DNA of 64,000 bases from Blasia pusilla. Taxonomy: Eukaryota. The first letter of the stretch is position 1. The number at the start of each line of letters is the position of its first letter. Positions 21,773-63,990 of the stretch are shown piece by piece. The position numbers and the translations under genes were made by a program. The notes beneath the pieces are model-generated. The model had not been told where the DNA came from. It ran no database searches and saw only the letters and a list, made by a program, of their open reading frames with translations. The stretch lies in the NCBI GenBank assembly GCA_050084515.1, contig CM114271.1, positions 9,610,001 through 9,674,000 of the forward strand, written 5' to 3'.

Positions 21773-24700
21773 TCACACTTCTTTGAGGGACAGAATTTGT
21801 TGGTGGATTCCTACTCCTACCTCGGACTCTCTTAAAACTACCAGCAACACATAGTACATGTGCTTACAAGGGAAATACCTTTTGCCACTTGTCTCTCTTT
21901 GGACAAAGTCATCACATGAACATGTGGGAAAGCAACATATGTGCACCACATACATCCCTGTGACACTTGAATTTACAGTGTTGTTCCTGACCCAATACAT
22001 CCTTCCTATTCCATTGCCACTCAAGACATCTTTCGTGGCGATGATCTCCATTTTTGCCTCCCGATCTAATGCAATTTGCTTTGCTCTCTCCACCGTTGGC
22101 CTACACATTCTGTTTCTCTTCACCCCATTTCTAGACTCAAACAGAAATAATGGACTGAGATCATCCACCTTCTCCGGGTACATGTTGACATCAATCTTGG
22201 GTTGAATACGAAATGCGAAGGTCTCTGTAATGCGAACATGCTCCGAACTTCCTCCGTCTACGAGTCTGAAACCGGCACTTGTAAGATTGTCCACTTTGTC
22301 TTGAGTACAGGTCGTACCTGCGGCGATGGGCCAAATCGTGGGGGTATTCCCCGGAGCTCCAATGGCAGCCAGATAAGACTTTCGGAAAGCGCAAGATTCA
22401 TTTGGGCAAAAGAAGTACTTCAATTGATCCCCGGTCCTTGTGAAATGATCAAAGGTTTTGAGTCCCCAAAACCCAGGCAGTGGTCATCTAATCCTTGTAT
22501 AGTTCTTATTTAGGAAAGTGCCGCATGCTCTCCTAATGCCATCTGATCCTGCCGTGCAGGTAAGTCCACGTCCTGGGTTGCTCCGAGATATATGCCACCG
22601 TTTTAGGTTGCAATCCACCTCCATTACCGGAATCCCATATTGTTGAACCACCCTAGTGATAGGATGTTGCGAACTTCCAGCAATGGAGGGCTTTTGAAAT
22701 AAAACATTCAGTGATTTTGGAGAAGTAACTCCATCACGGATTTGGGACGGGTCCGGGGTCCCCGAATACCTGGGCGGCGTAATTTCCTCATCCAAATCAA
22801 TCATCGGATTTGTTCCTCGATGTTTCCTCTTCACCTGCTTGAAGTCAAGATACTTATCTGGTCTCCACGAGTCTCGCTCGGACTGCTCTACCACCATCTG
22901 TATGGGACGTCTTGAAACCCGCCCACGAATATCCCCACCAATGTGTAAGTCTTGCTCGAGTGGAGTTCGAGCTACGCACTGGTTGAAGGCTTCCACATAC
23001 ATTTTTTCATCACCAGATCTCACAGCCGCCCTCACATAGAGCTCGTAGATCGACGGCCCCTTTCCTTTTGTTATGCCTTTTGTGAGGAAGATATGGGATG
23101 CTGCAGACTCTAGCATTGCTCTTGCCTGGTCTTGTTGGCATGCCTCCACAAGTGAAATTTGTTGGCATGCTTGTGACGACCTCCAAGAGGAATGAACACT
23201 TTCTACTCCACTTGTGTTGGGGCAGAGGGTATTTTCATGAACGTTCAATCCCTGCAACGACGGCAAAGTTAGAAGGGAACGAAAATAACTCAGGAGTCAA
23301 AAAAATAAGCGACATGTCGGAACCAGACGGGTTGCAGGCCCGAGATACCCCATGAACGACTCTGCGACCCGTCAGGTCCAGACGTGTTGTAACCTTAAAC
23401 CCGCCTACTGCAACCCGTCGGAACCAGACGGGTTGCAAGGCCGAGGCATCCCATGAACAAATCCTGTGACCCATCGGGTCCCAACGGGTTGCACACTCGG
23501 GTTGCACGAAAAATCTGGATGCAACCTGTCGGTTTCCGTCGGGTTGCACACTCGGGCAACTCGTCGCATCCGAGAGCTTGCTTGGTTTCTTCAGTTTGAA
23601 ATCCCTATAGTTCCCACGCTTCTCACCCTGAGCTACAACTTTACAAACAATTCTCAGCGTGAGCTTGACAAGACAAAATAGTGAACTCACATGCCGCATG
23701 AAGTTTCCCCATTGTCTCATACATACAGTCCACCAACTCAACCAAGAGCACAACTCTTTGTACTTCCCCTCAATCGCATGCTTCCTCCACCACCCATGAA
23801 GTTCTTCCTGACATTCCATGGCCTGCTTCAAGGTTTTGCTGTCCTTGCAGCGTTGGAGTAGAGTGACATGCTCTGTCCTCTTATTCTCCTTGATGCAAGA
23901 TTTGGAGTACCGGGTCTGTTGTTGCCAATGGAAAGCATCCGACCTTTCCCTCTCCGGTTGAACCTCTCCACCCCAGAACACTTCCCGGATAGCAATCCAC
24001 CTAGGTTGTGCATTGTCTGCCATGAACCCATAAATTTCCGGAGGTGGCCTTTTGTTTTCCTTCACCACCTCCAATAAGAGTAACCAGCACATCTTCAAAC
24101 TGCCAACGTCTTCTCCTTTACTTCACAGACAAATATAGTTTTGAGGCCCTTCTCCACATGGTCATAAACATGAGCACCCATCGTCAACCATCCGTTTAGC
24201 ACTCTGTAGCAAATATCAAAGCTTACCCAGCTGCCGTAAAGATTTTCCCCTTCCCCTCATTCGATCTATAAGATCGAGGCCACTCGACGGACCTGGGGTT
24301 GACATTTTGAAGACATAGGCCCTGGATCCCTCGCCTCCTTGGCCCATGAACTGCCATATTTGAATGAATGGAAATCTAGAGTTGGCCTTGATTCTGGCAA
24401 TGGCATCCATTTCGGCCGTCTTTCCATCCAGAACTCGTATTTGGCGCAGCAAATTCTGGAAGCATTCAGGATCAGCGAGAAATGTGAGATTTTCCCAGAA
24501 ATGTTTCTCCTCAGCCGCCGTGATCTTGCCCTGTCCACGGATTCCAAGCGATTGTTCGCAAATTTGTGATGCCGTTGTGAGCTTGATCACTCCGGGCTTT
24601 GAACCCGGAGAGTTTCTGTAGACCTTGGCAACTTTCTTCGTCACATCCTCCTTGTCTCTGAATTGCATCGGTCACAGGATGAGTGTGGGAGCCAACATGA

Positions 24701-25695
24701 ACTGCTTGCCATGTGTACTCTGACGTGGAGCCCAAGTCGTGGACAATGAAAAATATGTATGCAGGACATGCTCCAAAGTAGAAGGGCAATGCCTGACAAT
24801 GAGGACATCGATGGCCTCCCGGCGGTATGGTGTCACCGACCTCATATGGAGTTTCTGCATTCTTGGGGGGGAATTGCGACGTATTGACTCGCCCGTTGCA
24901 CTCTAGATACGGGCATGCTGGACTTCTACACTCCAAGGTTCCGACGCATTGGCAGCGGGAGACAATCCAAGGACCATCTGGAATTGAAGCACTAGTCCGT
25001 TGAAGCCTGCACCATTGATGACAATGAGACTTTATGTCCATACCCTTCAGGCGTCCTCCATCTTTCTTTTGAGCAGGAGCAGCAAGTGGAGGCAACTCAA
25101 AAATGCAAATACCATCGTACGTGGGCGGCAGCTTGTCGACAAGAATGTGCTTGAACATTTTCAAGGCCAGAGACGAAAGCAAACTATTGCCTGATACTCG
25201 CAAGAGGAATGAATAGGCGGATAGAGGGCTCGGTTGGTGTCCGACAGATCCACTGAGGTTGATAACATCCGGAATCTCTTCAGGAAGAACAACATTAATA
25301 CGAGCATGTGAAGTTGGAGTCGAAGCCGGATCTGCAGAGCTTGGAGTTGCAAACGTAGAGCTCGGAGCACTAGGAAATTCTAGACCGTCTACTTGGGAAA
25401 CAAAAGAATTCAGGGGCAGGTCGTAAACTCTGTATTGACCATTTGCTAGAGGTAGGAGATTCCATACGTTACGGTCTGAGGTCACTGGCTGGACCGTCTC
25501 ACCTATTATGTCTTCCGTACCGTCCACCCTAACATCTTTGGATACAAAGATGGTTCCAATTTGGAGAAGAAATCGAACAAAGAGAAAATTTTCATCCACT
25601 GCTATGAAAGACTCACGAGCTTGGGGTTGAATGATTTCTGATTGAGGAAGGGCCGCGAGATGAGTGCCACAAGTGAGCTTAACATAATTATCCAT
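21773..25695 (-). pseudogene. Mutator-type DDE transposase with N-terminal Cys/His domain and C-terminal SWIM finger; one intron 23252-23690; frameshifted
   Basis: VSFDICY (D), GFMADNA (D), SDAFHW (CxxH position), NTSGVESVH (E), SWIM CSCDDF..FPCKH; GT-AG intron conserved in copy 3. Confidence 0.85.
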
Positions 25696-25753
25696 TCCCA
25701 GAAATTTCGTACGGGAGGAGGGTGAGAATGAGAAAAAGAATGAGAATTTTTAA

Positions 25754-26642
25754 TTTATAGTGAATAGGAAAACAAATACTCATGATAGATTTTTACTGAC
25801 AAGATGAATTCGGTAGGTGACATTGTCTGACACAATGGATCCAATTCTGTTGCAACACATTCAATTCTGTTGCAATGTGTTACCGGATTTGGGAAGCAGA
25901 GACGTGAGTTGCGAAGCACACTTCATTTTGTTGGAACCCGTCGAAGTCCTGGTAACTCAACAATTAACCCAAGCTAAGCAAAGACTGCAACCCGTCGGCT
26001 TCGGATGGGTTGCACGCTTCTGCCTTACCTTCAAACGCAAACATGGTCAAAGCTGGCAACCCGTCGCTCTCCGACGAGTTTGCTCGGATACCGCTCCTTC
26101 TTGCCCGAAGATTCCGGAGGCGTGCAAACCGTCTGTTCCCGATGAGTTCCACGGGTGCTGCACCTATTTGCCCAAAGACGGCGAGGTGTGCAACCCGTCG
26201 CCCTCCGACGGGTTGCACAAGGGCCTCGCCTTGTGGTGCTTACATGAAGGAAGCGTGCAACCTGTCAGACTCCGACGAGTTGCGTGGGAAACCCGCGTTG
26301 TTAACCCTTGACGAGGGAAGCGTGCAACCCAACGGTCTCCGACGGATTGCGCGGGTACGTCCCGTTCTTGTCCGAAGACGCTGGAGGCGCGGAACATGTC
26401 GGTCTCCGACGGGTTGCGCGGGTACCTCGCGTTCTTGTCTGAAGACGGCGAAGGCGCTCAACGCGTCGGTCTCCGACGGGTTGCTCGCGCACGTGGCAAC
26501 GTACCCAGGACGGCGGAGGCGCGCAACGGACTCCGACAGGTTGCCACTTTTTCACGTCCGGACTTCCATAACCTCCGGCACGTCACCATCGAAAGGACGA
26601 CGGGACCCAACGGTCAGCCCAACGGCTAGAAAAGTATAAATA
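25754..26642. promoter_or_regulatory. bidirectional promoter of element E with a ~67-bp-period palindrome array between two outward-facing TATA boxes
   Basis: Minus-strand TATAAA 25754-25759, ~60 bp before transposase ATG; plus-strand TATAAATA 26635-26642 conserved at 13320 and 38340; palindromes start at 25987, 26056, 26124, 26190, 26257, 26324, 26391, 26458, 26523. Confidence 0.7.
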
Positions 26643-26911: not shown

Positions 26912-29900
26912 ATGACGAGGAAAAAATCACAAGCAAAGAAGTCCGGGAGCTTCACTCCGAAGTCCATTAGGATTCCTGCGTCTGCATCTCCAGGGCCTCG
27001 TTCGGCAAATGAAATTAGGCAGCAGGAAATCGAGGAGCGGGAAAGGGAAGCGAAGATGCACAACGAAGAGCTTCTTGCGAGACGTGTTCAGGAAGCGCTC
27101 GATAGATAGAACGCAGAGGCTAAGATGTCGCAGGCCTTGAAGAAAAGGATCGCCGACGAAAAGAGAGAAAAGAAGCGTCTGGACGCGTCGGTGAGGAGAG
27201 CAGAATTGGCTAAAGCGAGGAGGGAAAAAGCGATAGCCATTGACGACAGCCGAAAGTGTTGAGATGCGGGAAATTTCCCTGATGAAGTCTGGGGACACAA
27301 TCAACATAGCGGAAACGCCAGAAGTTCAAATCACGGACGACGAGGTCATGAGGACCGCCAGCGTGGAGATGGTGGACATTGCCGAAGAAGCCAGAGAGCG
27401 GTCATTCTCGTCTCCAAGCCCGGCGGAAGACATTGACCTCTATCGAATCGACGAGTTCCCAATTGATTTGCCAGCTTCTGTCTCAGACAAGTTGGCTGGT
27501 CAAGAAACCGACCCAATTTTCGAGCGGGTAAGAGAGGATCTGGGTTTTTTGAATTATGTGAATTGCAATTCATTGGGAATTCAGTGTAGCTTATTGATCT
27601 TGTCCCAGTTCTGACAGGTGGTAAATCAGATGGCACTCATGGAGGGCCACAATGCCCCGAGGATTCCACTCTGCCGATTGCAGACAATGGTATACGTCAG
27701 CAAAATTCAGTCCAACGAGGACATCACGAAGCTTAAAAAATCGGCGGCAATAGCATCCTACGTCGACAACTTTCCTCCCTTCTATGTTCAGCCATACGAC
27801 AAGCACGGAACCCAAGCCTTGGTTAAGGAGGAGGACTTGGATAAGCTCGACACATTCTAGAGGATGAGAGACCAGGATTTTAGAAGGCAAGTAGAGGGCA
27901 CGGAATTCAGCTGGATGAGGAATCTGTATTTCTTCATCTGGGATGGAAATCACATGTTCATGGCGTGGACCAAGTTTGCAGAGGAGCGGCCCAACTCCTT
28001 GGAGGCACATTTTTGCGTGAAGGCAGTGGTCCTCCATTCCCTCATCACATGGCGACGGTGGAGATGGCAACGCATGCCATAAACATGTGAGTATCTTCTT
28101 GCTGCAAACCGTTAGACTCCGACAAGTTGTTTGGGTCGGCACTATTGTTGGGATGCTTTTGGCCAAACGCAACTCGTCGGACTCCGAAGAGTTGCTCGAT
28201 TGATGAATGGGTTAGGTTTTTTTTTTCCAAAAGCAACTCGTCGGACTCCGACGAGTTGCTCGACTCGACGCTTTTTCATGATGTTTTTTGAAGAAAGCAA
28301 CTCGTCGGACTCTGACGAGTTGTGCGACTGACCACAGGTTTAATAAGTTTTTGGCCCAAAGCAACCCGTCGGAGTCCGACGGGTTGCTCGACTCGCCGCC
28401 TTTTCATGATGTTTTTTGAAGAAAGCAACTCGTCAGACTCTGACGAGTTGTTCGACTGACCGTAGGTTTAGTATGTTTTTTGCCCAAAGCAACCCGTCGG
28501 AGTCCAACGGGTTGCTTGACTCGAAACTATTTTTGGCCAAAATCAACTCGTCGGAGTCCGACGGGTTGCATTCGGAAGTTGGTTTAGCAAATTTTGCGTC
28601 AAATTGCAAGTTTCCATTCAATTGCGCAACCTGTCGGACTCCGACGGGTTGCTATGTTCACGTTAGTATGTTCAATTGCACAACCCGTCAGAGTCCGACG
28701 GGTTGAAACCAGGCATTAGCAAATCTGAATGCAACCCGTCGGACTCCGACGGGTTGCATCATTTAGCTCGTTTCTAGAATCCGACCTTGAGCTGTGACGA
28801 CCCGTCGGAGTCCGACAGGTTGCAGGAATCCATGTAACTTACAAATTTTTTGACGGGTTGAGTTTGGATGTGCAGGATTGTGTCGGAGGGGAATGTCACC
28901 CACCAATAGATCCAGGACTGCGATCAGGTGAAGAAGGTGCTTACGACGCACCCGAGAGAGTACAAGGGGTTCTTGGGCGACGCCCTGGTAAATCAGATGC
29001 TTGCAAAGGGTGCTCAGATAAAAAAGAAAACTTGGGCAAATAAGTTTATTTCCCAAGATGCAGCCATAACCATCCTTTGCTGGTCGAAGATATAGGCCAC
29101 GAAGAAGAGCGCTGCAGTGGAGTTGGAGTGGAGGGAGAAAGTATCTGGGTCTGAGCGCGCGAAATTCATCCAAGCTACAGTATTTGCAGCCACGAAATAC
29201 ACGGCGAGCAAGATGCAGCGATACATGAGCATTCTCAACCCCGAACTTGGTTCGGAGTTTTACAAGGAGCTGAAGGCGATTATCAAGTGCCAACGGAAAA
29301 GGGATGAAGATCCGCAAGGTCGGATTGGGGAGAAAGTGTCCCTGGATCGCGTGCATCGGTTTGCGTTGTCCAGCATAAGCGAGTTTAGGAGGATCCGACT
29401 GATGAAAATCACTCTCAAGGGCACAGAGGCCCAGAAGTGGGCGGCACACCATCCTCCGAGTGTGTCCGATCCAGTGATCTCCCACTGGCTACGCGAATGG
29501 TCATTCTGGGACGCGTTGCGGGTTATCGGGAAGTCTGTGCTAGACGGTCTGCAAGCGGAGCTGAAAAGATTACAGCCCATTCCGGATGAAGCAAACCTGG
29601 AAAGTTCTGTAGATTTCGAGGTTTGGCTCGACAACATTTGGGACAAGACAATAAAAAACCCAGGATTCAAGACAATGTTCAAGGTTTGCGTCCTCCCTCA
29701 GGCAGAGCTTGACGAAGAAATGGAGGGGAACAAACGGGATCAAGCAAAGAAGAAGCGAGATCTACAGGACCAGATGGCCGATTCCGTTCGAGTAAAAGCT
29801 GCCAAACGGATGGTCTTCAGGTACCTCGTCCAGTGTAAGAATACAGGTACATGGGGAAAATTACCGGCAGCCTTGAAATTGTGGGCTTCGCCGCCTGATG

Positions 29901-31888
29901 GAGAGACATTCTCCATATACGACATGGAGATGGGGCAGCACATGTTTGATTGGGAGGTGGAGAATTGCCCCATTTGGCTTGACTTCAACGACCCTGAAGA
30001 CATCATCGATAAGGATTTACGAGTTCTTCATGATGCAATGGCCTCAGGACAAGACGACATCCCCAATTTTGTGCAGCCTGAAGACTTCTTCGGAGGAGAT
30101 GCAGAAGAGCAAGCCCACAAGACAGCTGAGTTGGCTTCCAAGGTCCACATAGCCAAAGACAAATCCACTGCGGGTCTCAAAGGCAAGGCGAGGGGAGGGA
30201 AAAATTCCAAGGACGAGTCTTCCCAAAGAGAGGCTGAAGATTCAAGGCCAGAGGCGGAATCGTCTGGGCGAGCGGGGAGAGAGGGTCGAACCAGGTCCTT
30301 GGCGAAAAAAACCCCACCAGTCTGAGGTCATAGAGACACCGACAAGCTGTCCGCAGACTCGGGAGAAGCGGAAGCGAGAGGTGCCAGGGTTGTCCCAAGG
30401 AGAATACAGTCCATCATCCTTGGGAAGACACAGACAAACAACGACCCGGACAAGTGTCCTCCTTCATTCACTCCTTTCTTGGATGAGTGAAAAGCTTCGA
30501 TTCTCAAGCGTCCACACCAGCCATCGATAAATTGACAACGCTGGGACGGAAGCTCCAACGAAACGGGCACGCTGCCTCGACGGTGAATGGAGTGGTCGAA
30601 GAGGTTGCGGTGGATCTCTTGATCGCTGATCTGCCCTTGAGGTTGCGACTGTGGGGCGAGAATCCGTCGTACGGGGTACCTGAGTGGAATGTGCCGCTCT
30701 CTTATGACCAAATCGCGCTATTGTTCTCCTTTGCAGATGCCTATCTGAGTGACAGGGGTTGATTCTTGGTGTTGATAGGAGGGAGCGAGGACGAGCTCTT
30801 CAACCTCCAGTGCGTCAAGAGGTCGCTAAAGTGGAGGACAGTGGAATCGTGGATCATAAAAAACGAGTATCCACTCCGATCCGTGACAAGTCAGATTCGG
30901 GTAAGGCTCAATGAGTGTTAATTTCAGATAGTATATCTCCGTTGTTCTTGTCCGTGAGCAACCCGTCGCTTTCCGACGGGTTGCATCTTTCCTAGAAACA
31001 CAGGGAAAACCGTGGTGTACCTGCAACCCGTCGGAACCAGACGGGTTGCACTTGCTTTTGGTTTTTCCCTGTGTTTCCGGAAAGCTGCAACCCGTCAGCG
31101 ACGGTTTCTCGGCCGAGCATGGGTCGCTCTAGGCCAAACAACCCGCCGCCTTCCGACAAAGTTGCTCACGGACAAAAACAACGGAGAGCCCGACGGGTTG
31201 TTTTGTCCCTGACCAACCTGTCGGAAGGCGACGGGTTGGTCAGGGACAAAACAACCCGATGGTTAGCCAAAGTTAGTAATTGAAAAAGTTCTCTAGGGTC
31301 AAGCCGACTTCTTTGGTGACGTGTTGCACATTATGCCAAGTTTCTGACATTGTTTCCAACGTGCTTCTTTCTGAGATGGACCGCTCCCACGTACGCTTCG
31401 CCGTTCGCCCGAGCACAATTTCCAGGTGTTCAAGATCCAGGATCTTGTGGATCCATGCTCAGATGGATACAACTTAGATAGTTTGTATAATTCCCCCCCG
31501 GGAATTTACATGCAAGATAGTACCCCACTTCTAGGAGGAAGGGAAAAATTGCCAGCCTTGATGCAAACGCTCATCGAGCTCTGCTCAAGGCGGGGTGACT
31601 TGGTGTTCGGCTTAGTGGGACTTTCACGGGCAAGTATCAAAGGCGCCTGGTAGAGTGGCAGGAACATTCTCTGCCTCGAGGGAAGGCAAGAACTGTTTGA
31701 CCTTTGCAAGGAGGCAAAGGCAGAATACAAAAGGCTCATTGGGGCGTACAACTCTCCACCGAATCCGAGAGCTCCGGTTCCAGACCCACCATTGGTAGTG
31801 ACTCCATCGTCACTTCCAACGATTCCAAAAATCGGGAGGGCAAGGCCGAAAGTAATTTTTGCAAGAGCTCTCGGACGATGACGAGTGA
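26912..31888 (+). pseudogene. 4-exon cargo gene: charged N-terminus, ParB/Srx-like domain, helical middle region, beta-class N4/N6 DNA methyltransferase-like domain
   Basis: Exons ~26912-27527, 27618-28086, 28876-30900, 31426-31888 with GT-AG sites conserved among copies; WDGNH(R) in exon 2; VDLLIADLP in exon 3; REKLPALMQTLIELCSRxGDLVF..SGRNILCLE in exon 4; several stops and frameshifts. Confidence 0.75.
28104..28825. repeat. intronic array of 27-bp palindromes, 64-bp period with alternating A/B spacers
   Basis: Starts at 28169, 28233, 28297, 28361, 28425, 28489; perfect copies 28361-28387 and 28731-28757. Confidence 0.95.
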
Positions 31889-33739: not shown

Positions 33740-36700
33740 TCTAGGCAGTGGTCGTCTAGTCCTTGTACAATTCTTATTTAGGAAAGTGCCGCATGCTCTC
33801 CTAATGCCATTAGATCCTGCCCTGCAAGTGGGGCCACATCCAGCATTGTTCTTCAATACTGCCTCTTCACTTGCCTGAAGTCAAGATACTTATCTGGTCT
33901 CCACGAGTCTTGCTCGGACTGCTCTACCACCATCTGTATGGGACATCTTGAAACACGCTCACGAATATCCCCACCAATGTGGACATCTTGGTCGAGGGGA
34001 GTTCTTGCTACGCACCGATTGAAGGCTTCCCCAGAGAGCTTCTCATCAATAGATCTCACAGCCGCCCTTACATAGAGCTCGTAAATCGAAGGCCCCTTTC
34101 CTTTTGTTATGCCTTTTGTGAGGAAGATATGGGATGCTACAGACTGTAGCATTGCTCTTGCCTGGTCTTGTTGGCATGCCTCCACAAGTGAAATTCTTTG
34201 GCATGCTTGTGACAACCTCCAAGAGGAATGAACACTTTTTGCTCCACTTGTGTTGGGGCAGAGGGCATTTTCATGAATGTTCAATCCCTGCAACAACGGC
34301 AATGTGAGAAGGGAACAAAAATAGCTCTATGAGCAAAGAAAAAAGCTACCTATCAAAACCAAACGGGTTGTAAGTCAAAGGAATCCCATGAATGACTCTA
34401 CGATACATCGATTTTTGATGTGTTGCAACACCCAGGAACCACCTAGTGCAACCCGTCGGATTCAGACGGGTTGCAAGTAACTTTGGTCACTCCGGGCTGG
34501 AAGAACCAAGTGCAAGTCATCAGATCTGACGGGTCGCACATGGATTTTCCAGCCTCCGACTTGAAACGGGTTGCAAGGCAGAGGCATCCCTGGAATGTCC
34601 TTGTAACCTTTTACAGTAACCTAGCACCTTGGAACTTGCTGCTGCAACCCGTCGGAATCAAACAGGTTGTGAGAAGCAGGCCGGCGTGGTCTCGAAAATC
34701 CTTGTGCAACTTGTCCGATTCCGTTGGCTTGTAAGAAGTGTCCACACACGAAGCTTTGCAACTATTGGAATTGGACGGGTTCCAGTTAACTTGCACTGAT
34801 GCAACTTGTCTCGATGCGAGCACTTGGAGACAGCCGCAACCTGTCTGAATGCGAGGAGTCGCATACAAACGCAACTAGTCGGAATCCGACGGGTTGCAGA
34901 TCAAGTTAACTTCCAGCCTTGCTGCTTACAACCCATCGAGGTCAAACTATTTGCAGGCCTTGTATACATGCAACTTGCAACCCATTGGGATTCGACAAGT
35001 TGCACACTCATGCAACCACTCGGGTTCCGACTGGTTGCACAAAAATTCCTTGTGCATCATGTCACAAAAATTCTTGATGCAACCCGTCGGTTTCCGACAG
35101 GTTGCACACTCAGGAAACCCGTCGCATCTGAAGGATTGCTTGGTTTCTTGAGTTTGAAATCCCTATAGTGCCCACGCTTCTCAACTTGAGCTGCAACTTT
35201 TCAAACACTTCTCAGCATGAGCTCGACAGGATGAAATACTGAACTCACCTGCCGCATGAAATTTCCCCATTGTCTCATTAGTACAGTCCACCAACTGAGC
35301 CAAGAGCATAACTCTTTGTACTTCCCCTCAATCGCATGCTTCCTCCACCACCCATCAAGTTCTTCTTGGCACTCCATGGCATGTTTCAAGATTTTTTTGT
35401 CCTTGCAGCATTGGAGTATAGTGACATGCTTTGTCCTCTTATTCTCCTTGATGCAAGATTTGGTGTACTGGGTCACTCACTGTTGCCAATGGAAAGCATT
35501 TGACCTTTCCCTCTCTGGTTGAACCTCTCCATCCCATAACACTTCCCTGATAGCAATCCATCCATGTTGTGCATTGTCCACCATGAATCCATAAATTTCC
35601 GAAAGTGGCCTTTTGTTTTCCTTCACCACCTCCAATAAGAGTAACCAACACATCTTCAAATTCCCAACGTCTTCTACTTTTACCTCACACAAAAATATAG
35701 TTTTGAGTCCCTTTTCCACATGTTCGTACAGATGAGCACCCATGGTCAACCATCCATTCAACACTTTGTAGCAAATATCAAAGCTTACCCTGTTTCCGTA
35801 GAGATCTTCCCCTTCCCTCATTCGATCTATAAGATCAAAGCCACTCGACGGCCTTGTAGTTGACATTTTGAAGACATAAGCCCTAGATCCTTTGCCTCTG
35901 AGGCCCATGAACTACCATCTTTGAATAAATGGAAATCTGGAGTTGGCCTTGATTCTAGAAATGGCATCCATTTTGCTCGTCTTTCCATCAAGTACCCATA
36001 TTTGACGCAGCAAATTCCGGAAGCATTCAAGATCATTGAGGAATGCGAGATTTTCCCAGAGTTGTTTCTCCTCAACAGCCGTGATCTTGCCCTGCCCAGG
36101 GATTCCAAGCAATTGTTCACAAATTTGTGATGTTGTTGTTAACTTGATCACTCCCAACTTTGATCCCGGAGAGTTTCTACATACCTCGGCCACTTTCTTT
36201 GCCACATCCTCCTTGATGTGTCTCTGAATTGCACCGATAACAGGATGAATGTGGGAGCCAACATGAACTACCACCCTGGTGTACTTGGACGTAGAACTAA
36301 AGTCGTGCACAATGGAAAATATGTATCCAAGACACGCTCCAATGCAGAAAGGGTATGCTTGACAAAGAGGACATCGATGGCCTCCTGGCGGTATGGTCGC
36401 ATCGACCTCATATGGAGTTTCTGCACTCTTTGGGGGGAATTGCAAGGTATTGACTCGCCCATTGCACTCTAGATACGGGCAATCTGGACTTCTACACTGT
36501 AGGACTCCAACGCATTGGCGGTGAGAAACAATCCAAGGACCATCTGGAATTGAAGCACTAGTCCGTTGAAGCCTGCACCATCAATGACAATCAGACTTTC
36601 TGTCCATACCCTTCAAGCATCCTTCATCTTTCTTTTGAGCAGGACCAGCAAGTGGAGGCAACTCAAAAATGCAATTACCATCGTACGTGGGTGGCAGCTC

Positions 36701-37261
36701 ATCGACAAGAATGTGCTTGAACATTTTAAAGGGGACAGACGACAACAAACTATTGCCCAATACTCGCAAGAGGAACGAGTAGGCAGACACAGGGCCTGCT
36801 TGGTGTCCGACTAATCCATTGAGGTTGACGACATCCGGAATGTCTTCAGGAAGTACAACATTGGTGCGAATGTGTGAAGTTGGAGTCGATGCCGGATCTA
36901 TTGAGCTGGGAGTGGCAAACGTAGAGCTCGGTGCATTAGGAAATTCCGGACCGTCTACTTGGGAAATAGAGGAACTAGGAGGCAAGCCATAAACTCTGTA
37001 TTGAGCATTTTTTAGAGGTAGGAGATTCCATACTTTACAGTCTGCTATCACTGGTTGGACTGTCTCACCTACAACGTCCTCCATACCGTCCACCCTAACA
37101 TCCTTGGAAACAAAGATTGTTCCAATTTGGAGAAGAAATCGCACTGAGAGGAAATTTTCATCCACTGGTATGTAAGACACACGAGCTTGCGGTCGAAATA
37201 TTTCTGATTGAGGAAGGGCCGCTAAATGACTGCCACAAGTGAGTTTTACATAATTATCCAT
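33740..37261 (-). pseudogene. MULE transposase, copy 3 (lacks SWIM end; intron 34288-35248)
   Basis: ORFs 36581-37261, 35912-36445, 35477-35908, 35201-35476, 33853-34302 are colinear homologs of 21773-25695. Confidence 0.88.
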
Positions 37262-38653
37262 TCCGAGATTATTCCATCAGGTGGAGAATGAGAATAACAA
37301 TAACAATAACAATGGGAATGAGAATGAGAATGCTTAATTGATAGTGAATAGTGACCGTTATTCTTTTGACATAATATGACTGACAAGATGCTTTTTGGTG
37401 GGTGAGATTGTCTGACGAAATGGATTCAATCGTGTTGCAACCTGTCGGAGTCCGAAGGGTTGCAAATTTTGGGACTCAAACACGCGGGTTGCAAAGCCAT
37501 GGAGTATCATCTTCCAAGTGCAGCTTGCAACCCGTCGGAGTCAATTGGGTTGGACGTAGTTGTCAGTAGGTATCCCCTGCCTGTGTGACATGTCTGATTG
37601 GAGTTGGGATCCATGAGACCTTGCATGGATTTCCTACGGCAACCCATTGGGGACTGCGATGGGTTGGAAAGGCACCTCACCTTGCTTTCCCTTTTTGAGG
37701 TAATCGAGTTGCGGGGGGATCTCGCGTCAATTTCTCTTGTCCAATGTACCGTGCAAACCGTGAGGGAAATTTTTTCGTCTGGTGGGAAGTGTCCAACCCA
37801 TGGTAGACCTTGTAACCCATCGGAGTTCAACGGGTTGCCTTGGGACTCTGCTTTGTTGCCTTGTTACCTGAGGATGAGGGAAGCGTGCAACCCGTCGGTC
37901 TCCGAGGGGTTGCCACGGGTACCTCACCTTGTTACCCCTTCAATGAGGGAAGCGTGCAACCCGTCGGTCTCCAAGGAGTTGCCCAGGTACCTCACCTTGT
38001 TACCCCTTTGATGAGGGAAGCGTGCAACCCCTCGGTCTCCGATGGGTTTCTTGGGTACCTCGCCTTGTTACCCGAGGACAAGAGCGTGCAACCCGTTAGC
38101 CTCCAACGGGTTGCGTGGGTACCTCGCCTTGTTACCCCAAGACGAGGGCAGCGTGGAACCCATCGGTCTCGGACAGGTTTCTTGGGTACCTCGCCTCCCA
38201 CCCCCAAGACGAGGGCAGCGTGCAACCCGTCGGTCTCCAACGGGTTGCGCAGGTTCCCACGTGCAAAGTTCCATAACGGCCGACACGTCGCCGTCGGTTC
38301 CACCCAACAACCCAATGGTAAGCTAAACGGCTCGAAAAGTATAAAAGGCTGAGATTTTGCTCATTCCCATTTTTCATTTCTCGATTTCATGTGGTCTTCA
38401 TTGCAGCAGCTGACGTTACCTTTCCGCTGCCAAAGTTAGTTACATTCACCCCTTTGCTGGAAGGTTACGACAATCCACCACCCGACGCTTCGAGGGTTCG
38501 ATTTTGGCAAGCCCATCCGCTCGAGGGTCACGAAGCTTCATCACGAAATGCTTCAAGAGTTGGGTTTAGGCACTCCATCAAAGCTTCGAGGGATTTGTTG
38601 TGCACAGGAGCAGATTAGACTATTGAGGAGGAAAAACTGACCCAACGTGCACC

Positions 38654-41600
38654 ATGACAAGAAAGAAAACACAAGCAACCAAGGTAGGGAGCATCACTCC
38701 CAAGTCCATCAAGACTCTTGCGTCACCATCTCTAGGTCCTCGTTTGGCGAATGAGATAAGGCAACAAGAAATAGAGGAGCGGGAAAGGGAAGCAGATATG
38801 CACATGCAGGAGGTTCTAGCAAAACGTGCTCTGGAGGAGCTCATAAAGCAAAACGCCTAGGCTGAGGCATCGAAGGCCTTGAAGAAAAGAGTCACAGACT
38901 CAGAACGCGAGAAGAAACGTCTTGACGCCTCCGTCGGGAGAGCAGAATTGGCAAAAGCTTGAAGAGATAAAGCAATCGCCGTTGAAGAAATCCTTGCCCG
39001 TCCAACAGAGAGTGTTGAGATGCAGGAAATGTCTCCCATGAGGTCTGGGGAATCTAAAATCGGTTGAGGAAATAGCCAAAGTTCAAGTGACAAACGATGA
39101 GGTAATGAGGACAGCAAGTGTGGAGATGGTGGACATCTCTGAAGAAGTAGGAGAAGAGTCTTCGTCGTCTTTGAGCCCGGTAGAAGAAAAAATTATCGCA
39201 TCGATGAGTTTCTCGTGGACTTGCCTTGCCAGCTATTGTACAATAGCAATTGGTGGGCCTGGACACCGACCCAATATTTGAGCGGGTAAGAAAAATTCGG
39301 GTTATGGGTTGGTATTTTATTGACTTTGTCCCCATTGTGGCAGGTTGTTAAGCATATGGCACTAAATGGAGGGCCAGAAGGCCCCAAGAATTCCACTCTG
39401 TTGATTGCGGACAATGGAGTATCTCCGCGAAATTCAGTCGGAGGAGGACATTGCAAAGCTCAAACAGTCGGCAACGATTGCATCCTACGTCGACACCTTC
39501 CATCCGTTCTATGTTCAGCTTTACGTTGAACATGGAACCCAAGCTTTGGTGACGGAAGAGGACTTGGAGGCGTTGGATACATTCTCGAGGATGAGAGATC
39601 AGGAGCTCAGAAGAGCGATTGAAGGAACCCAATTTAGCTGGACGCGGAACCTCTAATTCTTCATTTGGGATGGGAACCACAAGTACATGGCCTGGACGTA
39701 GTTTGCAGAGGAGCATCCAAATCCATTGGAGTTGCATTTCTACTTGAGGTCAGTCGTGCTCCATCCATTTCCTTATCACATGGCAATGGTGGAAATGGCA
39801 ATGCATGCCATGAATACGTAAGTTTCCTCATCCTTAAGTTTGATTGCTTCAACCAGTCAGAGTCCGACGGGTTGCATAATTGGAAAGCCTAAAGCTGGGC
39901 ATGAATGATTTGAGTCTCTTGCCACCATCCTCTTTGTGGTCTAGGTCATAGTCAAGCAAACCGTCAGAGTCCGACAGGTTTCCTGGTGGCCAAGCACACC
40001 AGATTAATCCGGGATACTTAAACCAATCGAACATCGACGGGTGGAAAAATGTCTACATGATTTATTTTTTCTTCAATCCGTTGGACTCCAACAAGTTGCA
40101 CAATGAGGGGTAACAAATCATCGGATGCCTAAAAGCAACTTGTTAGAGTCCGACAAGTTGTTGGACTATTCACTATTTTTTGGATACTTTTGGCCGAAAG
40201 CAACTCAACGGACTCATATGGGTTGTATTTTCCCCCAAGGATACATGGTCGGAGTCCCACAGCTTGATTTTAGGCATCCAATTCCAGCTTTACAGGGCCA
40301 TTCCGCAATCCATTGGACTCCGACGAGTTGATATGGGCAATTTTTATCCGTTTACCTGTGAGAGAGTGCAACCCATCGGACTCCGATGGGTTGCAATTCT
40401 CTCTAAAAATTTAAAGAGTGTTGCAATAAGTGTAATACAAAGATAAGTGTTGCGACCTGTCGGACTCCCATGGGTTGCAACATTTATCTCTGTGTTACGA
40501 TTTGGACCTCGATGGGTTGACAGAATTGCGACCCGTCAGAATTCGACGGGTTGAAGGAACCCGATAGGTTGCAATATTCTTACCTTGTGTTTGGATTTGT
40601 AGGATTGTATCTGAGGTGAACGTCACCCACCACTGGATCTAGGATTGCGACAGAGTCAAGGAGGTACTTACGACGCACCGGACATAGTACAAGGGATTCT
40701 TGGGTAGCGATTTGGTAAATAAAATGCTGGCAAAAGAAGCTCAAATGAAAAAGAAGACCTGGAAAATACCTTCATTTCCCAAGATGCAGCAATCACAATC
40801 CTATGTTGGTTCAAGATCCTGGCCGCCAATAAGAGTGTTACGTTTGAACTAGAGCAAAGGGAGAACGTGTCCGGGCTGGAACATGCAAAGTTTATTCAAG
40901 TTGCCGTATCTGCAGCTACAAAGTACACTGCAAGCAAGATGCAATATTACATTACAATTCTCAACCCCGAACTTGGCCCAGAATTTTATGAGGAGCTCAA
41001 GGCGATAATCAAGCATCGGCGGAAGAGAGATGAAGATCCATAGGGTCGGATCGGAGAGGAAGTGTCTTTGGACCGCATGCACAGGTTTGCGCTGTCTGGG
41101 ATATCTGAGTTTAGGCAAATTCGATTGATGAAAATCAGTCTCAAGGCCACTAAGGCCCAAAAGCGGATGGCACACCACCCTCCGAGAGTTTCAGGTCCAT
41201 TGATCTCTCATTGGCTACAGGAATGGTTCTTCTGGGACGCGTTGCGCCTTCTTGGGAAGTCCATGATCGTGGGTCTACAAGAGGAGCTGAAGAAGATTGA
41301 GCCAGTTTGAGAGGAAGCAAACCTAGAGGCTGTAGAAGATTTTGAACTATGGCTTGATGACATCAGAGATAAGCCGACAAAAAACCCATGATTCATAATG
41401 ATGTTCAAGAAACACATTCTCCCTCAAGCAGACCTGGATGAGGAAATAGACGCTAGAAAAAAGGGATTCTGCAAAGAACAAGCGGGATCCTCAAGACCAC
41501 GCGGCTGAGTCATCTTGACAAAGAGCTGCCCAACAGATGGTGTATGAATACCTCATCAATTGTCTGAATGCAGGTGAATGGCAAAAATTTCCGACAGCCT

Positions 41601-41752
41601 GATTTGTGGGCTTCTCTACCTGATGGAGAAGGATTCTCCATGTACAACATGGAGATGGGACATGGCACGTCCGATTGGGAGGTTATGAATCGTCCAAACT
41701 GGTTGGACTTCAACGACCCAGAGGACATTACAGAAAAAAAATGTACGCGTGG
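38654..41752 (+). pseudogene. cargo gene, copy 3 (exons 1-2 and part of exon 3)
   Basis: MTRKKTQATKVGSITPKSI.., WDGNHKYMAW at ~39666-39695, WLDFNDPEDIT at ~41700. Confidence 0.8.
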
Positions 41753-47723: not shown

Positions 47724-48184
47724 TCACTCGTCATCGTCCGAGAGCTCTTCCATGATTACTGTCGGCCTTGCCCTCCCAATTTTTGGAATCGTGGGAAGTG
47801 ACGATAGTGTCACTATCAATGGTGGATCTGGAACCGGAGCTCTCGGCTTCAGATGAGAGTTGTACGCCCCAACTAGCCTGTCGTAATCTGCCTTTGCCTC
47901 CTTGCAAAGGTCAAATAGTTGCTGCCTTCCCTCAAGGCAGAGAATGTTCCTACCACTTTGCCAGGCGCCTCTGATACTCGCCCTTGAAAGGCCCACTAAG
48001 TCGAACACCAAGTCACCCGGCCTTGAGCAGAGCTCCATGAGCGTTTGCATCAGGGCTGCAACTTTTCCCTTCCTCCAAGTAAGGGGGTACTGTCTTGCAT
48101 GTAAATTCCCGGGGGGGGATTGTATAAACTATCTTAGCTATACCCATCGGAGCATGGATCCACAGGATCCAGGGTCTTAAACAC
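47724..48184 (-). pseudogene. cargo exon 4 of copy 4 (MTase-like motifs X/I/II)
   Basis: MQTLMELCSRPGDLVFDLVGLSRASIRGAWQSGRNILCLEG, open across the position that is a stop in copy 2. Confidence 0.75.
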
Positions 48185-52706: not shown

Positions 52707-53087
52707 GTTGCTAGGTCGATCTCGATGGACACCCGGCTTTGGCCTGCTACGCAACTTTGTGGTGATCCCGTCCATGAAAATACCCGCTTGGTTACGCCGG
52801 ACTGCTCTTATAGTCCGCTCCCCCCGTGTCCGTTCTTGGTCGTGGCGCCGAGGCTGTAACAAGAAGGTGGGCGCTTTGCGTCTTTGCCACGCTCCCCCTT
52901 CCTCACTTCCTACGCTTCGCTGCTTCGCGAAGCATGGGATGTCTGGAACCTCGGTGCTTCGCTGCTTCGCGAAGCACGGTATATCTTGAACTTAGCGTTT
53001 TCGCGACTTTTGCGGCTCGGTATGTCTGAACCGTGCTTTGCTACTTTTTGCGGAAGCACGGGCGTTGCCTACCCCCTTCCTCATGTT

Positions 53088-56528: not shown

Positions 56529-56667
56529 GACTTTCTGGGTCTTTTTGCGGCTGATTTTCCCTTTCTTTGCAAGATTTTTTTCAGATATCTTGGGTTATCC
56601 ATTAGCAATCAGAAAGGGGTTATGTTGGCCGGGGTTGACGCCAAGTTCCTCAGTAAATCGTAAGCTT

Positions 56668-63800: not shown

Positions 63801-63990
63801 ATCGTAAGGCTGAACATAAAACGGAGGGAAGTTGTCGATGTAGGATGCTGTCGTTGCCGATTGTTTCAGCTTCGCAATATCCTTGTCAGACTAAATTTCG
63901 CGGAGTTACTCCGTAGTTTGCAATCGGAAAAGTGGAATTCTCAGGGCGTTCTGGCCCTCCATTAGTGCCATCTTCTTTACCACTTGTCAC
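60894..63990 (-). pseudogene. cargo gene of copy 4, exon 3 (60894-62939) and exon 2 (~63590-63990)
   Basis: ORFs 61563-62411 and 62454-62747 match 29117-30325; VDLLVADLPSG at ~61150-61183; intact FFIWDGNHRFMAW (DGNHR at 63645-63659). Confidence 0.82.

Follow-up and report, generated by a model that had tools for sequence, protein, structure and literature searches.

What is encoded between positions 30430 and 31700 of this 64,000-nucleotide stretch of Blasia pusilla DNA (hereafter the window), and could its product still methylate DNA? The original prediction, made from the sequence alone, proposed a beta-class N4/N6 DNA methyltransferase-like domain with altered catalytic and SAM motifs that is either a divergent writer or a catalytically dead reader. 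The question has a wider bearing, as transposons with chromatin- or DNA-modification enzymes reveal how mobile DNA manipulates host silencing. The known carriers are retrotransposons with cytosine or adenine methyltransferases and the Mutator-like elements of Arabidopsis with their unrelated VANC proteins.

In the present locus, a PF01555-type domain with a catalytic loop rewritten throughout its family sits in an apparent DNA transposon. A literature search, with supplementary domain tables (PMC12973397 Table S6, DAM preprint) outside its scope, listed no paper describing a gene of this kind in a Mutator-like element. The explanation that we favour as probable is an accessory gene of a bryophyte Mutator-like transposon, encoding a non-canonical, probably non-catalytic methyltransferase fold that possibly binds palindromes.

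Results

A long gene in three decayed copies

The motif strings quoted in the original prediction are present in the 30430-31700 region. Two plus-strand segments of the window, 30487-30900 and about 31375-31881, each encode one half of an amino-methyltransferase-like domain of the beta class (PF01555-type) and belong to copy A of a much longer gene (Table 1). Riccia proteins of 1,048-1,244 aa are collinear with 27645-31827 by tblastn, and likewise with copies B and C, giving a full gene of ~1,100-1,250 codons in which the methyltransferase domain is fused behind ~800 residues of unrecognised domains. The exon-1-like part of copy A matches aa 153-300 of the Riccia long proteins P0025 and P0040 and aa 28-136 of P0032 (E 1e-13 to 6e-16). 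The exon-2-like part contains an open frame of 409 codons (29096-30325), and its tblastn matches run in order along P0019 (aa 178-653) and P0040 (aa 303-646). Exon 3 matches P0003 (E 2.1e-10) and P0004, and exon 4 matches P0005 (3.4e-8), P0007 and P0009.

Table 1. Positions of the methyltransferase-like gene copies, transposase-like genes, palindrome arrays and nested elements in the window.
Feature	Position	Strand	Basis
Palindrome arrays equivalent to that at 25933..26544	12864-13216 and 37812-38248		
Second MULE transposase-like copy; four frames of 236-412 codons, C-terminal SWIM zinc finger candidate	21773..25749	-	
67-bp tandem array of the shared 27-bp palindrome, upstream of the methyltransferase-like gene	25933..26544	.	
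Copy A, exon-1-like part; N-terminal domain of no recognised fold	27645..28034	+	tblastn
Tandem array of ~64-bp units between exons 1 and 2	28104..28823	.	self-BLAST; palindrome motif hits 28169-28823
Copy A, exon-2-like part; helical middle domain	28868..30325	+	ORF, tblastn
Copy A, exon-3-like part; N-terminal half of methyltransferase-like domain	30487..30900	+	homology to P0003, P0004; alignment
Copy A, putative intron with palindrome units (30958-31239)	30901..31374	+	motif hits, read depth
Copy A, exon-4-like part; C-terminal half of methyltransferase-like domain	31375..31881	+	homology, tblastn, reads
MULE transposase-like gene, decayed; non-coding part holds palindromes 34448-35125	33846..37276	-	ESM Atlas, palindrome hits
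Copy C, exons 1-2 only; ended by another LTR element at 41752	39372..41751	+	tblastn
Copy B, exon 4; open 134-codon frame	47727..48128	-	frame reading, PDB match, tblastn
LTR-retrotransposon sequence nested between exons 3 and 4 of copy B; not part of the gene	48187..60486	-	
Copy B, exons 1-3; 79% identical to copy A, stop and frameshift in exon 3	60888..63956	-	self-BLAST, tblastn

Exon 3 of copy A reads, in frame from 30487, ...VDLLIADLPLRLRLWGENPSYGVPEWN...AYLSDRG(TGA)FLVLIGG..., with the motif IV equivalent D-L-P-L at 30628-30639, VPEWN at 30673-30687, an in-frame TGA at 30760-30762 and a GT donor at 30901. Exon 4 reads, from 31375, ...REKLPALMQTLIELCSRRGDLVFGLVGLSRASIKGAW(TAG)SGRNILCLEG... 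and contains the motif X/I region REKLP...GDLVF(G) at ~31540-31635, LVGLSRAS at 31612-31635, the TAG at 31651-31653 and ILCLE at 31666-31680. The exon-4 string quoted originally is a blend of two copies, SRPGD and VFD coming from copy B and SRRGD and VFG from copy A. NSPPG at 31489-31503, considered as an alternative motif IV, was ruled out since it is not conserved across the family.

The putative intron between the two halves differs in length and content among genomic copies. Over it the DNA depth drops to 61-790, compared with ~1,190 on the exons, and DNA joints skip or repeat units; RNA depth is zero across 31076-31393. The proposed gene model joining exon 3 to exon 4 agrees with the collinear homology, but no exon 3-exon 4 splice junction appears among the 15 joints listed of 73, all 15 of which come from DNA.

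All three copies of the methyltransferase-like gene within the window are broken. Exon 3 of copy B (~61305-60888, minus strand) reads VDLLVADLPSGLRLW...AYLSDRGCFLVLTGG, with a stop and a frameshift. Exon 4 of the same copy (48128-47727, minus strand) reads AALMQTLMELCSRPGDLVFDLVGLSRASIRGAWQSGRNILCLEG, with a frameshift immediately upstream; by itself, its best PDB match is M.RsrI (E 0.051), in an alignment that covers the motif X/I region. In the nested retrotransposon sequence, the LTRs at 49613-50819 and 59236-60486 share 95% identity, and a further LTR lies at 48187-49477. Because both are interrupted by stops or frameshifts, copies A and B at the window coordinates are pseudogenes and cannot encode a working protein.

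Homology and predicted fold

No Pfam model matched the window pieces at E<=10, and the six frames of 26000-37500 had no Pfam match at E<=0.1 and contained neither a reverse transcriptase nor a tyrosine recombinase. Word-indexed searches found no homologue of copy B exon 4 or of the 409-codon frame, and exon 3 alone gave chance-level matches in the PDB, none of them a methyltransferase. The missing Pfam matches would fit a chance resemblance of motifs in junk DNA, an explanation that is already refuted and retains a negligible probability. From a library of 1.84 billion proteins the read-through of 30487-31881 retrieved seven at E<=1e-3, the strongest at 2.1e-10, and the profile and fold matches described below fall on PF01555-type enzymes alone.

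Five of the seven representatives are named and come from Riccia sorocarpa, R. fluitans or Ceratodon purpureus, all of them bryophytes. PF01555 is the top family in five of the seven (E 3.1e-5 to 0.21). It is also the sole Pfam family matched at E<=0.01, in 15 of 29 relatives (best 1.9e-7); relatives listed in the Pfam scans score 8.9-25.9 bits, most relatives falling short of the 26.7-bit gathering cut-off of PF01555. A precomputed PF01555 label is carried by 5 of 39 relatives, and the labels now in use are 'hypothetical', 'DNA methylase N-4/N-6 domain-containing' and 'Trimethylguanosine synthase'. At least 38 paralogues are spread across R. sorocarpa contigs.

A family profile including the window sequences was compared with the PDB, and all ten hits at E<=1 are PF01555-type DNA methyltransferases. 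They include DpnA (2.6e-7) and CcrM (2.9e-6), and the alignment with CcrM extends from motif IV as far as the C-terminus; a profile without the window sequences gave 2.4e-5 and 2.2e-4, respectively. The alignment pairs 'DllilDlPeg' of the family with 'DLIFADPPY' of CcrM and continues to the C-terminal motif X/I/II region. The AlphaFold2 model of the relative P0007 (pLDDT 79.1, pTM 0.80) matched CcrM (9.5e-13) and M1.HpyAVI (1.2e-11) in Foldseek, followed by M.BceJIV, RsrI, MboIIA, rotifer N4CMT and PvuII. The profile alignment and the top Foldseek hits place the family in the permuted class I methyltransferase order (IV ... X-I-II). The beta-class N6/N4 homology and the motif order IV-X-I in the original prediction are supported by the PDB profile, the PF01555 matches and the fold.

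AlphaFold modelled the N-terminal part of the protein with pLDDT mostly below 50 (60.0 for the whole model, pTM 0.51), and the confidently predicted helical middle domain matched no known fold or Pfam family. A ParB/Srx-like N-terminal domain, considered from 'IPLxRL' and 'W[ED]GNH', is unsupported, with no Pfam hit at E<=10 and a best Foldseek E of 0.18.

Two P0007 chains (residues 1-285) are predicted to form a homodimer with a score of 0.44, the best of three controls scoring 0.00; at least 42% of the contacts agree between runs and the partner pLDDT is at least 53. In calibration, 21 of 30 proteins with structures of same-chain pairs attained this mark, as against none of 23 with single-chain structures; among eukaryotic proteins 17 of 29 attained it, but only one of the seven that lack an older solved relative. 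Several beta-class methyltransferases have been solved as dimers, and the P0007 score may for that reason reflect mere likeness.

Copy number, transcripts and selection

At >=80% likeness, 25,703 DNA reads gave a mean depth of ~1,190 on the exons, and 74 DNA reads at >=99% likeness gave ~3.7x. The genome contains roughly 300 copy-equivalents, mostly 80-95% alike. Most copies differ from copy A at two codons: 31651 T>C, which puts Gln in place of the TAG stop, was found in 1,158/1,258 DNA reads and 88/106 RNA reads, and 31627 C>G, which turns Arg into Gly in motif I, in 1,016/1,210 DNA reads (84%) and 102/106 RNA reads. The RNA reads are from runs bearing the same species label. Exon 4 is covered by RNA at a depth of 17-43 per run, and exons 2-3 at a low depth of 0-10. 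Nearly all the exon 4 RNA has its first mate on the minus strand, which is plus sense in most stranded libraries. Other copies yield RNA of the sense strand.

Copies A and B differ at codon positions 1/2/3 by 65/39/102 in exon 2, 16/9/36 in exon 3 and 9/9/22 in exon 4, against 34/28/34 in a non-coding control (chi-square p 5e-7, 6e-5, 0.015 and 0.69, respectively). The methyltransferase-like gene has been under purifying selection in the past. The third-position excess in exons 2-4, absent from the control, makes it very unlikely that the gene is a functionless, decaying captured fragment of the Pack-MULE passenger type. Such a passenger would be compatible with the broken state of all three window copies, and capture of host fragments by Mutator-like elements is described in the available text of PMC6446971. 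The absence of the window's stop from most genomic and expressed copies argues against it, as does domain-wide conservation from liverworts to moss (D, D.P, WN, D.G).

The catalytic and cofactor motifs

Amino-methyltransferases grip the flipped base with the aromatic residue and the first Pro of their motif IV. The motif reads DLPL in copy A and DLPS in copy B. The absence of the aromatic residue from both window copies, as originally noted, recurs throughout the family, in which the region was found in 44 of 52 proteins and reads D-[LMIA]-[PS]-x. In this tally, made by regex and with a few of the 44 matches probably spurious, position 2 is Leu in 26, Met in 10, Ile in four, Ala in two and another residue in two, never Pro; position 4 is Ser in 20, Thr in 11, Glu in seven and another residue in six, never Tyr, Phe or Trp. 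The tally covers family proteins; codons 30628-30639 are not among the 40 listed of 653 read differences.

Motif I behaves differently. Both window copies read LVGLSR, with both Gly gone, in keeping with the LVGLS originally noted for the FxGxG motif, but this state is partly private to them. The 1,016 of 1,210 DNA reads above show that most genomic copies carry LVGLSG, and the Riccia members retain GxG in F(A/V)GGWG, reading GDIVID-FAGGWGAT and then an acidic residue. The moss members read SANTG or LASTG, and the first Gly is lost in them and in the subfamily of this genome. The survey of relatives finds motif IV altered family-wide and motif I eroded in part of the family. D, D.P, WN and D.G are invariant from liverwort to moss. 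On the cofactor side much of the sequence persists: GD.V.D, GxG in complete or incomplete form, and the acidic residue that follows strand 2. W(D/N) behind motif IV, the motif X K and GD.V.D are named here after the usual beta-class motifs.

Judged from these motifs, catalysis has probably been lost. An unusual active enzyme is possible, because the Asp and one Pro of motif IV, the conserved WN and the full GxG of Riccia are retained. Intact copies would then be active non-canonical DNA (or RNA) amino-methyltransferases writing 6mA or 4mC, for example in palindromes, and hindering host 5mC silencing. We regard this as unlikely, given that all 44 family sequences lack both base-holding residues of motif IV, the aromatic one and the first Pro, and that the first Gly of motif I is lost in moss members and in this genome's subfamily. 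In favour of a writer are the preserved fold and cofactor-side sequence, with Riccia GxG followed by an acidic residue, the second Gly of motif I in most copies of this genome, the Asp and Pro of motif IV and the WN shared by liverworts and moss, and purifying selection on the domain. Retrotransposon-borne adenine methyltransferases with preserved pockets also exist, according to the available text of 10.64898/2026.05.21.726589.

A probable Mutator-like neighbour and shared palindromes

Two transposase-like genes lie on the minus strand of the window. For 35480-35911 in the first, all ten of the best named ESM Atlas clusters are MULE or ZSWIM RNaseH-like (scores 0.93-0.90); the read-through of 35201-36580 had no match to the Pfam MULE model (PF10551) at E<=10. 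The frame shows a D...D...FHW layout that, by eye, resembles the MULE pattern. The second copy (21773..25749) is 85-86% identical to 33846-37441. Its candidate SWIM zinc finger is the sole hit for that frame (PF04434, E 0.015, 15.3 bits versus a cut-off of 19.6), and its 412-codon N-terminal frame gave no usable ESM Atlas match. The only reverse transcriptase in the window is that of a nested LTR element.

Each ~64-bp unit of the 28104..28823 array carries a 27-bp CG-rich palindrome, GCAACCCGTCGG-nnn-CCGACGGGTTGC. Palindrome half-sites number 152 matches against 3.3 expected and occur in the non-coding parts of both the methyltransferase-like and the transposase-like gene, and the order array, methyltransferase-like gene, transposase recurs in repeated units. 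We infer that the two genes belong to one element. The repeat and self-BLAST listings of the window hold no inverted pair framing a unit, and neither the terminal inverted repeats nor the 9-11-bp target-site duplications of a Mutator-like element came to light; the copies are nested, truncated and 73-86% alike. The transposase's own zinc-finger domain would be an equally natural binder of the palindromes.

It is quite improbable that the methyltransferase-like gene lies outside the Mutator-like element, as part of another unclassified repeat or as a dispersed host gene family beside MULE fragments. That arrangement would account for the missing termini in a heavily rearranged, nested region, for a gene fragment at 21003-21334 whose orientation towards a transposase copy differs, and for Riccia models of 1,048-1,244 aa that contain no transposase domain. 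A single 27-bp palindrome common to the non-coding parts of both genes and to the arrays between them, together with the recurrent gene order, points the other way, and ~300 copy-equivalents plus at least 38 R. sorocarpa paralogues speak against an ordinary host gene.

Discussion

The preferred reading, an accessory gene of a bryophyte Mutator-like transposon, can be set out as follows. The locus would represent a long gene of a high-copy bryophyte DNA transposon family, of which the window holds three decayed copies. The C-terminal third of the protein descends, with much divergence, from beta-class DNA amino-methyltransferases of the bacterial type, and in it the catalytic (D/N/S)PP(Y/F/W) loop was replaced family-wide by D-[LMIA]-[PS]-[S/T/E..]. 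Such a protein would act as a transposon accessory factor rather than as a canonical N6A/N4C writer, and would use the methyltransferase fold as a DNA-binding, perhaps SAM-binding module, probably in a symmetric dimer. Its most plausible targets would be the element's own palindrome arrays, and binding there could aid transposition or protect the element against silencing by the host.

A bolder version is a doubtful proposition at present: a bryophyte MULE lineage may have recruited a bacterial-type beta-class enzyme as a dimeric, sequence-specific reader, or non-canonical writer, of its own palindromes, escaping host cytosine methylation by a VANC-like anti-silencing system, invented independently on a methyltransferase fold and maintained since before the liverwort-moss split. 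If intact copies bind or modify the palindromes, they would constitute a directly testable transposon counter-defence system in early land plants, as well as a natural case in which the amino-methyltransferase fold has been put to new use in reading DNA. The family also carries a warning for annotation, given the labels that its relatives now bear.

Comparison with known systems

The bacterial beta-class enzymes (CcrM, M1.HpyAVI/DpnA, M.RsrI, M.MboIIA, M.PvuII) share with the present family the fold and the permuted order IV, X, I, II, as well as W(D/N), the motif X K, GD.V.D and the acidic residue that follows strand 2; a homodimer is predicted here. Their motif IV is (D/N/S)PP(Y/F/W), whereas all family members examined have D-[LMIA]-[PS]-[STE..]. 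In contrast to them, the family is eukaryotic, intron-bearing and transposon-borne, with motif I eroded in part.

METTL3/METTL14 chains are also among the Foldseek hits of the P0007 model (E ~3e-5). METTL14, the inactive partner of METTL3 (MT-A70), has lost the canonical residues of its catalytic loop and works as a scaffold that binds nucleic acid. It is encoded by a host gene, comes from another branch of the fold and has RNA as its target, and the resemblance is one of functional analogy, not membership.

Rotifer N4CMT (8s9m) is a PF01555-type enzyme in a eukaryote (profile E 0.025, Foldseek 4.4e-9), and the present family is no closer to it than to adenine enzymes in profile or fold searches. 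Marchantia MpDN4MT1a/b are described, in the available text of their report, as liverwort host genes with canonical TSPPY and demonstrated activity (10.1101/2021.02.12.428880). The family described here has no TSPPY and is multi-copy and transposon-like. No specific link to the Marchantia and rotifer 4mC writers mentioned in the original prediction emerged from these comparisons.

The DAM domains of DIRS and LTR retrotransposons are likewise prokaryote-type amino-methyltransferases in eukaryotic transposable elements. According to the available text, they keep an Asn-Pro-Pro pocket, and DAM-LTRs are reported absent from Streptophyta (10.64898/2026.05.21.726589). The carrier here, by contrast, resembles a bryophyte DNA transposon, and the pocket motif is lost (D-L-P-x). 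Identity as the 'MT domain' of a DIRS retrotransposon was considered and dropped, since the unit contains no reverse transcriptase or recombinase and DIRS domains keep Asn-Pro-Pro.

VANC proteins are not known to have a methyltransferase fold, and the likeness to VANC anti-silencing is an analogy only. In the VANDAL (Mutator-like) elements of Arabidopsis, the non-coding regions are described, in the available text, as fast-varying tandem repeats of a short motif (PMC10398659). The layout found here is similar to that of VANC in VANDAL, with a putative accessory gene beside a MULE-like transposase and with repeat arrays, in this case variable arrays amid the 152 palindrome half-sites.

A beta-class amino-methyltransferase-like domain

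The original prediction placed a beta-class N4/N6 DNA methyltransferase-like domain at 30430–31700 and quoted it as exons 3 and 4; this stretch lies within copy A of the gene, on the + strand. Its strings are present in the sequence at that place; the residues of the exon-4 string are real, and the string itself is a blend of copies A and B rather than one continuous copy. No Pfam model matched the window pieces at E≤10, and no Pfam family matched the six frames of 26000–37500 at E≤0.1. Word-indexed homologue searches with copy B exon 4 and the 409-codon frame returned no matches, and exon 3 by itself had only chance-level matches in the PDB. The best PDB match of copy B exon 4 was M.RsrI (E 0.051), aligned exactly on the motif X/I stretch, with DpnA also among the matches (E 0.8).

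An exhaustive HMMER search with the read-through 30487–31881 (stops as X, intron retained) retrieved, out of 1.84 billion proteins, seven at E≤1e-3, the lowest E being 2.1e-10. Five of the seven representatives are named and belong to two liverworts, Riccia sorocarpa and R. fluitans, and a moss, Ceratodon purpureus; two are unnamed. The top Pfam family of five of the seven is PF01555 (N6_N4_Mtase; E 3.1e-5 to 0.21, each under the 26.7-bit cut-off), which is matched by 15 of 29 relatives (best 1.9e-7) as the sole family at E≤0.01. A profile of eight relatives and the window had ten PDB matches at E≤1, all of them PF01555-type DNA methyltransferases: DpnA/M1.HpyAVI (2.6e-7), CcrM (2.9e-6, aligned from DLIFADPPY to the C-terminus) and, ranked lower, enzymes including TTHA0409, RsrI, rotifer N4CMT, type III Mod and MboIIA. 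DpnA (2.4e-5) and CcrM (2.2e-4) were also matched by a 29-sequence profile without the window. An AlphaFold2 model of the related protein P0007 (32-row alignment, pLDDT 79.1, pTM 0.80) matched the folds of CcrM (9.5e-13), then M1.HpyAVI, M.BceJIV, RsrI, MboIIA, N4CMT and PvuII, with METTL3/METTL14 also among the matches at ∼3e-5. These PF01555, PDB profile and fold matches establish homology of the family to beta-class amino-methyltransferases; the predicted fold is borne out by the profile and the model, and, as to the METHYLTRANSFERASE domain, the window is a member of this beta-class amino-methyltransferase-like family. In UniRef, many Riccia sorocarpa relatives (P0009, P0014, P0024, P0025, P0027–P0029 and others) bear the name 'Trimethylguanosine synthase', and one relative is called 'Profilin'; both names appear to have been transferred in error, PF01555 being the sole Pfam family in scans of the relatives.

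Decayed copies of a larger gene

The window (GC 47%, no N) is made up of eukaryotic repeats nested within one another, and its gene copies are 73–86% identical. Copy B is interrupted by a stop and frameshifts of its own, and its exons 3 and 4 are split by ∼12 kb of nested LTR-retrotransposon sequence, including a Ty3/gypsy-type element whose LTRs (49613–50819 and 59236–60486) are 95% identical. No protein is possible from copy A or copy B; the copies here are defunct remnants of a larger family. An extra LTR lies at 48187–49477 and further partial LTR-element copies at 41752–45857 and 16339–19717. Elsewhere in the window, one open frame at 3503–4408 (+) encodes part of a DNMT3-like cytosine-C5 methyltransferase (PF00145 E 7.4e-9, with DNMT3A as the best PDB matches, 2.1e-8), and a PHD finger (PF00628 E 1.4e-9) ends a downstream frame at 6888–7724 (+); these frames may belong to a DNMT3-type gene of the host or to a further methyltransferase carried by a transposon.

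Features of the gene copies and surrounding elements
Feature	Position	Strand	Remarks
Relatives' aa ∼153–300	27645–28034	+	tblastn onto window
Relatives' aa ∼303–650	28868–30316	+	tblastn; covers open 409-codon frame 29096–30325
Methyltransferase N-half	30517–30918	+	tblastn of Riccia proteins
Methyltransferase C-half	31507–31827	+	tblastn of Riccia proteins
Copy A exon 3	30487 to GTAAGG donor at 30901	+	single frame ...VDLLIADLPLRLRLWGENPSYGVPEWN...AYLSDRG-TGA-FLVLIGGSEDELF...WIIKNEYPLRSVTSQIR
Copy A exon 4	frame resumes ∼31375	+	...EHNFQVFK...REKLPALMQTLIELCSRRGDLVFGLVGLSRASIKGAW-TAG-SGRNILCLEGRQELF..., same frame as exon 3
Copy B exon 3	∼61305–60888	-	second copy
Copy B exon 4	48128–47727	-	second copy
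Copy C	39372–41751	+	third copy, upstream exons only
LTR retrotransposon, Ty3/gypsy-type	49613–60486	-	RVT_1, RNase H and integrase zinc-binding domain frames; inside copy B exon 3/exon 4 interval
Second decayed gene of unit	21773–25749 and 33846–37276	-	transposase-like; opposite to methyltransferase-like gene
Palindrome arrays	12864–13216, 25933–26544, 28104–28823, 30958–31239, 34448–35125, 37437–38248, 60491–60857, 62990–63560, others		

Of the 39 relatives retrieved by a profile search, 38 belong to Riccia sorocarpa and are spread over its contigs. Some Riccia relatives are 1,048–1,244 aa long, with no Pfam domain other than PF01555 and no recognisable fold in their N-terminal parts. Their tblastn matches are collinear in copy A and lie in equal order in copies B and C, consistent with the exon numbering of the original prediction. 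By eye, 'IPLxRL' and 'W[ED]GNH[RM]' in the N-terminal domain (27645–28034 (+); relatives P0025, P0040 and P0052, the last with two copies of this domain) look ParB/Srx-like; this assignment was not supported, as Pfam gave no match, the model had low confidence and a fold search matched nothing.

At codon positions 1/2/3, the number of sites at which copies A and B differ was 65/39/102 in exon 2 (p = 5e-7), 16/9/36 in exon 3 (p = 6e-5) and 9/9/22 in exon 4 (p = 0.015), compared with 34/28/34 (p = 0.69) in a non-coding control from the same copies. Given this third-position excess, much of the divergence accrued under purifying selection, prior to the death of both copies.

Genomic copies, transcription and splicing

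Reads of one DNA run and three RNA runs with the same species label were mapped at a likeness of at least 80%. Only 74 of the 25,703 DNA reads placed were at least 99% alike; mean depth on the exons was ∼1,190 versus ∼3.7x for that class, a ratio that corresponds roughly to 300 copy-equivalents. The majority of genomic copies do not share the lesions of the window: 31651 T>C turns TAG into CAG (1,158/1,258 DNA and 88/106 RNA reads), 31627 C>G changes Arg to Gly and restores the second Gly of motif I (1,016/1,210 DNA and 102/106 RNA reads), 31610 G>A changes Gly to Asp, giving GDLVFD (1,179/1,190 DNA reads), and 31592 G>C changes Arg to Pro (1,087/1,191 DNA reads). Every RNA read derives from a copy other than this one, none being at least 99% alike; the first mate is on the minus strand in nearly all of them, which in most stranded libraries means + sense. 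RNA depth per run was 17–43 on exon 4 and 0–10 on exons 2–3, 0 over 31076–31393, and 0.49 over 30970–31075 in one run.

DNA depth in the intron falls to 61–790, and DNA joints skip or repeat palindrome units there; the intron arrays therefore vary among copies. No RNA splice joint was among the 15 of 73 joints listed, all of which were DNA joints. One spliced domain is favoured on two counts: the length between 'YPLRS' and 'HNF' fits the relatives only if SQIR leads directly into the beginning of the exon-4 frame, and RNA loose ends at 31407 continue collinearly into a strand that resembles '...EVFCKASHNF' of the relatives.

The catalytic loop is altered throughout the family

Invariant or nearly so in the family alignment are a D five residues ahead of motif IV (the catalytic loop), the loop's own D and P, a (V/I)PxWN ∼15 residues past it, D.G in the next strand, the motif X K, and GD.V.D. 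Of 52 family proteins, 44 gave a regular-expression match for the motif IV equivalent, and a few of these matches look spurious. Position 2 is L in 26, M in 10, I in 4, A in 2 and other in 2, never Pro; position 3 is P in 36; position 4 is S in 20, T in 11, E in 7 and other in 6, never Y, F or W. The aromatic noted as missing from the window copies is thus equally missing from the 44 relatives, and the altered loop is a family-wide trait rather than damage private to the window copy. Motif I, the SAM loop, varies between subfamilies: the window copies have LVGLSRAS, Riccia members F(A/V)GGWGAT with GxG intact, and moss members WSANTGAS or VLASTGAA. Its alteration in the window copies is partly their own, most genomic copies having Gly at 31627. 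'NSPPG' at 31489–31503 (+) ('NPPPG' in copy B) was considered as an SPPY-type catalytic motif and judged incidental, because relatives have non-conserved residues there (NYNHL, NFTDH).

A probable Mutator-like element with palindrome arrays

The gene is part of a ∼12 kb repeated unit. In the second gene of the unit, the last frame has a sub-threshold SWIM zinc finger (E 0.015), and the ten best named ESM Atlas clusters for the central frame are all MULE (Mutator-like element) or ZSWIM RNaseH-like (scores 0.93–0.90); the Pfam MULE model gave no match to this gene. With moderate confidence, its sequence suggests a diverged Mutator-like transposase. A 27-bp palindrome, GCAACCCGTCGG-nnn-CCGACGGGTTGC, has 152 half-sites against 3.3 expected (≤2 mismatches), in 64–67-bp tandem arrays whose length differs among genomic copies. 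The arrays lie upstream of the methyltransferase-like gene, between its exons and in the non-coding part of the transposase gene, which is the main argument for placing both genes in one element. Repeat and self-BLAST listings of the 64-kb window showed neither terminal repeats nor target duplications. A 70% identical fragment of gene exon 2/linker at 21003–21334 (-) has a transposase copy directly upstream, on its own strand; this orientation is unlike the convergent order of the 26–37 kb unit and may reflect nesting of an older copy or an arrangement specific to another subfamily.

The gene family is transposon-like, multi-copy and transcribed, and its C-terminal domain has a beta-class amino-methyltransferase fold with a motif IV that is non-canonical family-wide. 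In amino-methyltransferases the motif IV aromatic and Pro-Pro hold the flipped target base; canonical N6A/N4C methylation by the family is unlikely because these are absent. Conservation of cofactor-side residues and purifying selection point to a binding function kept in the domain. A two-copy model of the domain scored 0.44 against 0.00 for the best control and passes the dimer mark, with at least 42% of contacts agreeing between runs and pLDDT of at least 53. Among proteins of solved structure, 21 of 30 pairs of one chain and 0 of 23 single chains reach this mark; for eukaryotes the count was 17 of 29, with only 1 of the 7 that lack an older solved relative. Related beta-class enzymes have been solved as dimers, and the pass may be mere likeness to them. 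The model would fit a symmetric dimer of the methyltransferase-fold domain sitting on the palindrome; the palindromes could equally serve the zinc finger of the transposase itself. The gene is likely an accessory of a Mutator-like transposon, its methyltransferase domain being rewired and probably without catalytic activity. Whether the domain writes or reads is testable, as is its candidate action on the palindromes.

Comparison with known systems

Marchantia 4mC writers are described as host genes with TSPPY (10.1101/2021.02.12.428880). The DAM domains of DIRS and LTR retrotransposons are described as retaining Asn-Pro-Pro, and DAM-LTRs are reported missing in Streptophyta (10.64898/2026.05.21.726589). 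A survey of active plant TIR transposons reports diverse MULE accessory proteins and 335 singleton Pfam domains (PMC12973397). The literature searched contained no account of Mutator-like elements with a PF01555-like gene. In the Arabidopsis VANDAL/VANC system, the accessory protein of a Mutator-like element is reported to bind motifs repeated in tandem in the non-coding regions of the element and to remove silencing marks (PMC10398659); the layout of the window element appears parallel, by analogy. Transposons with DNA-modification modules are a known theme, to which this family would add a variant with a rewired methyltransferase domain.
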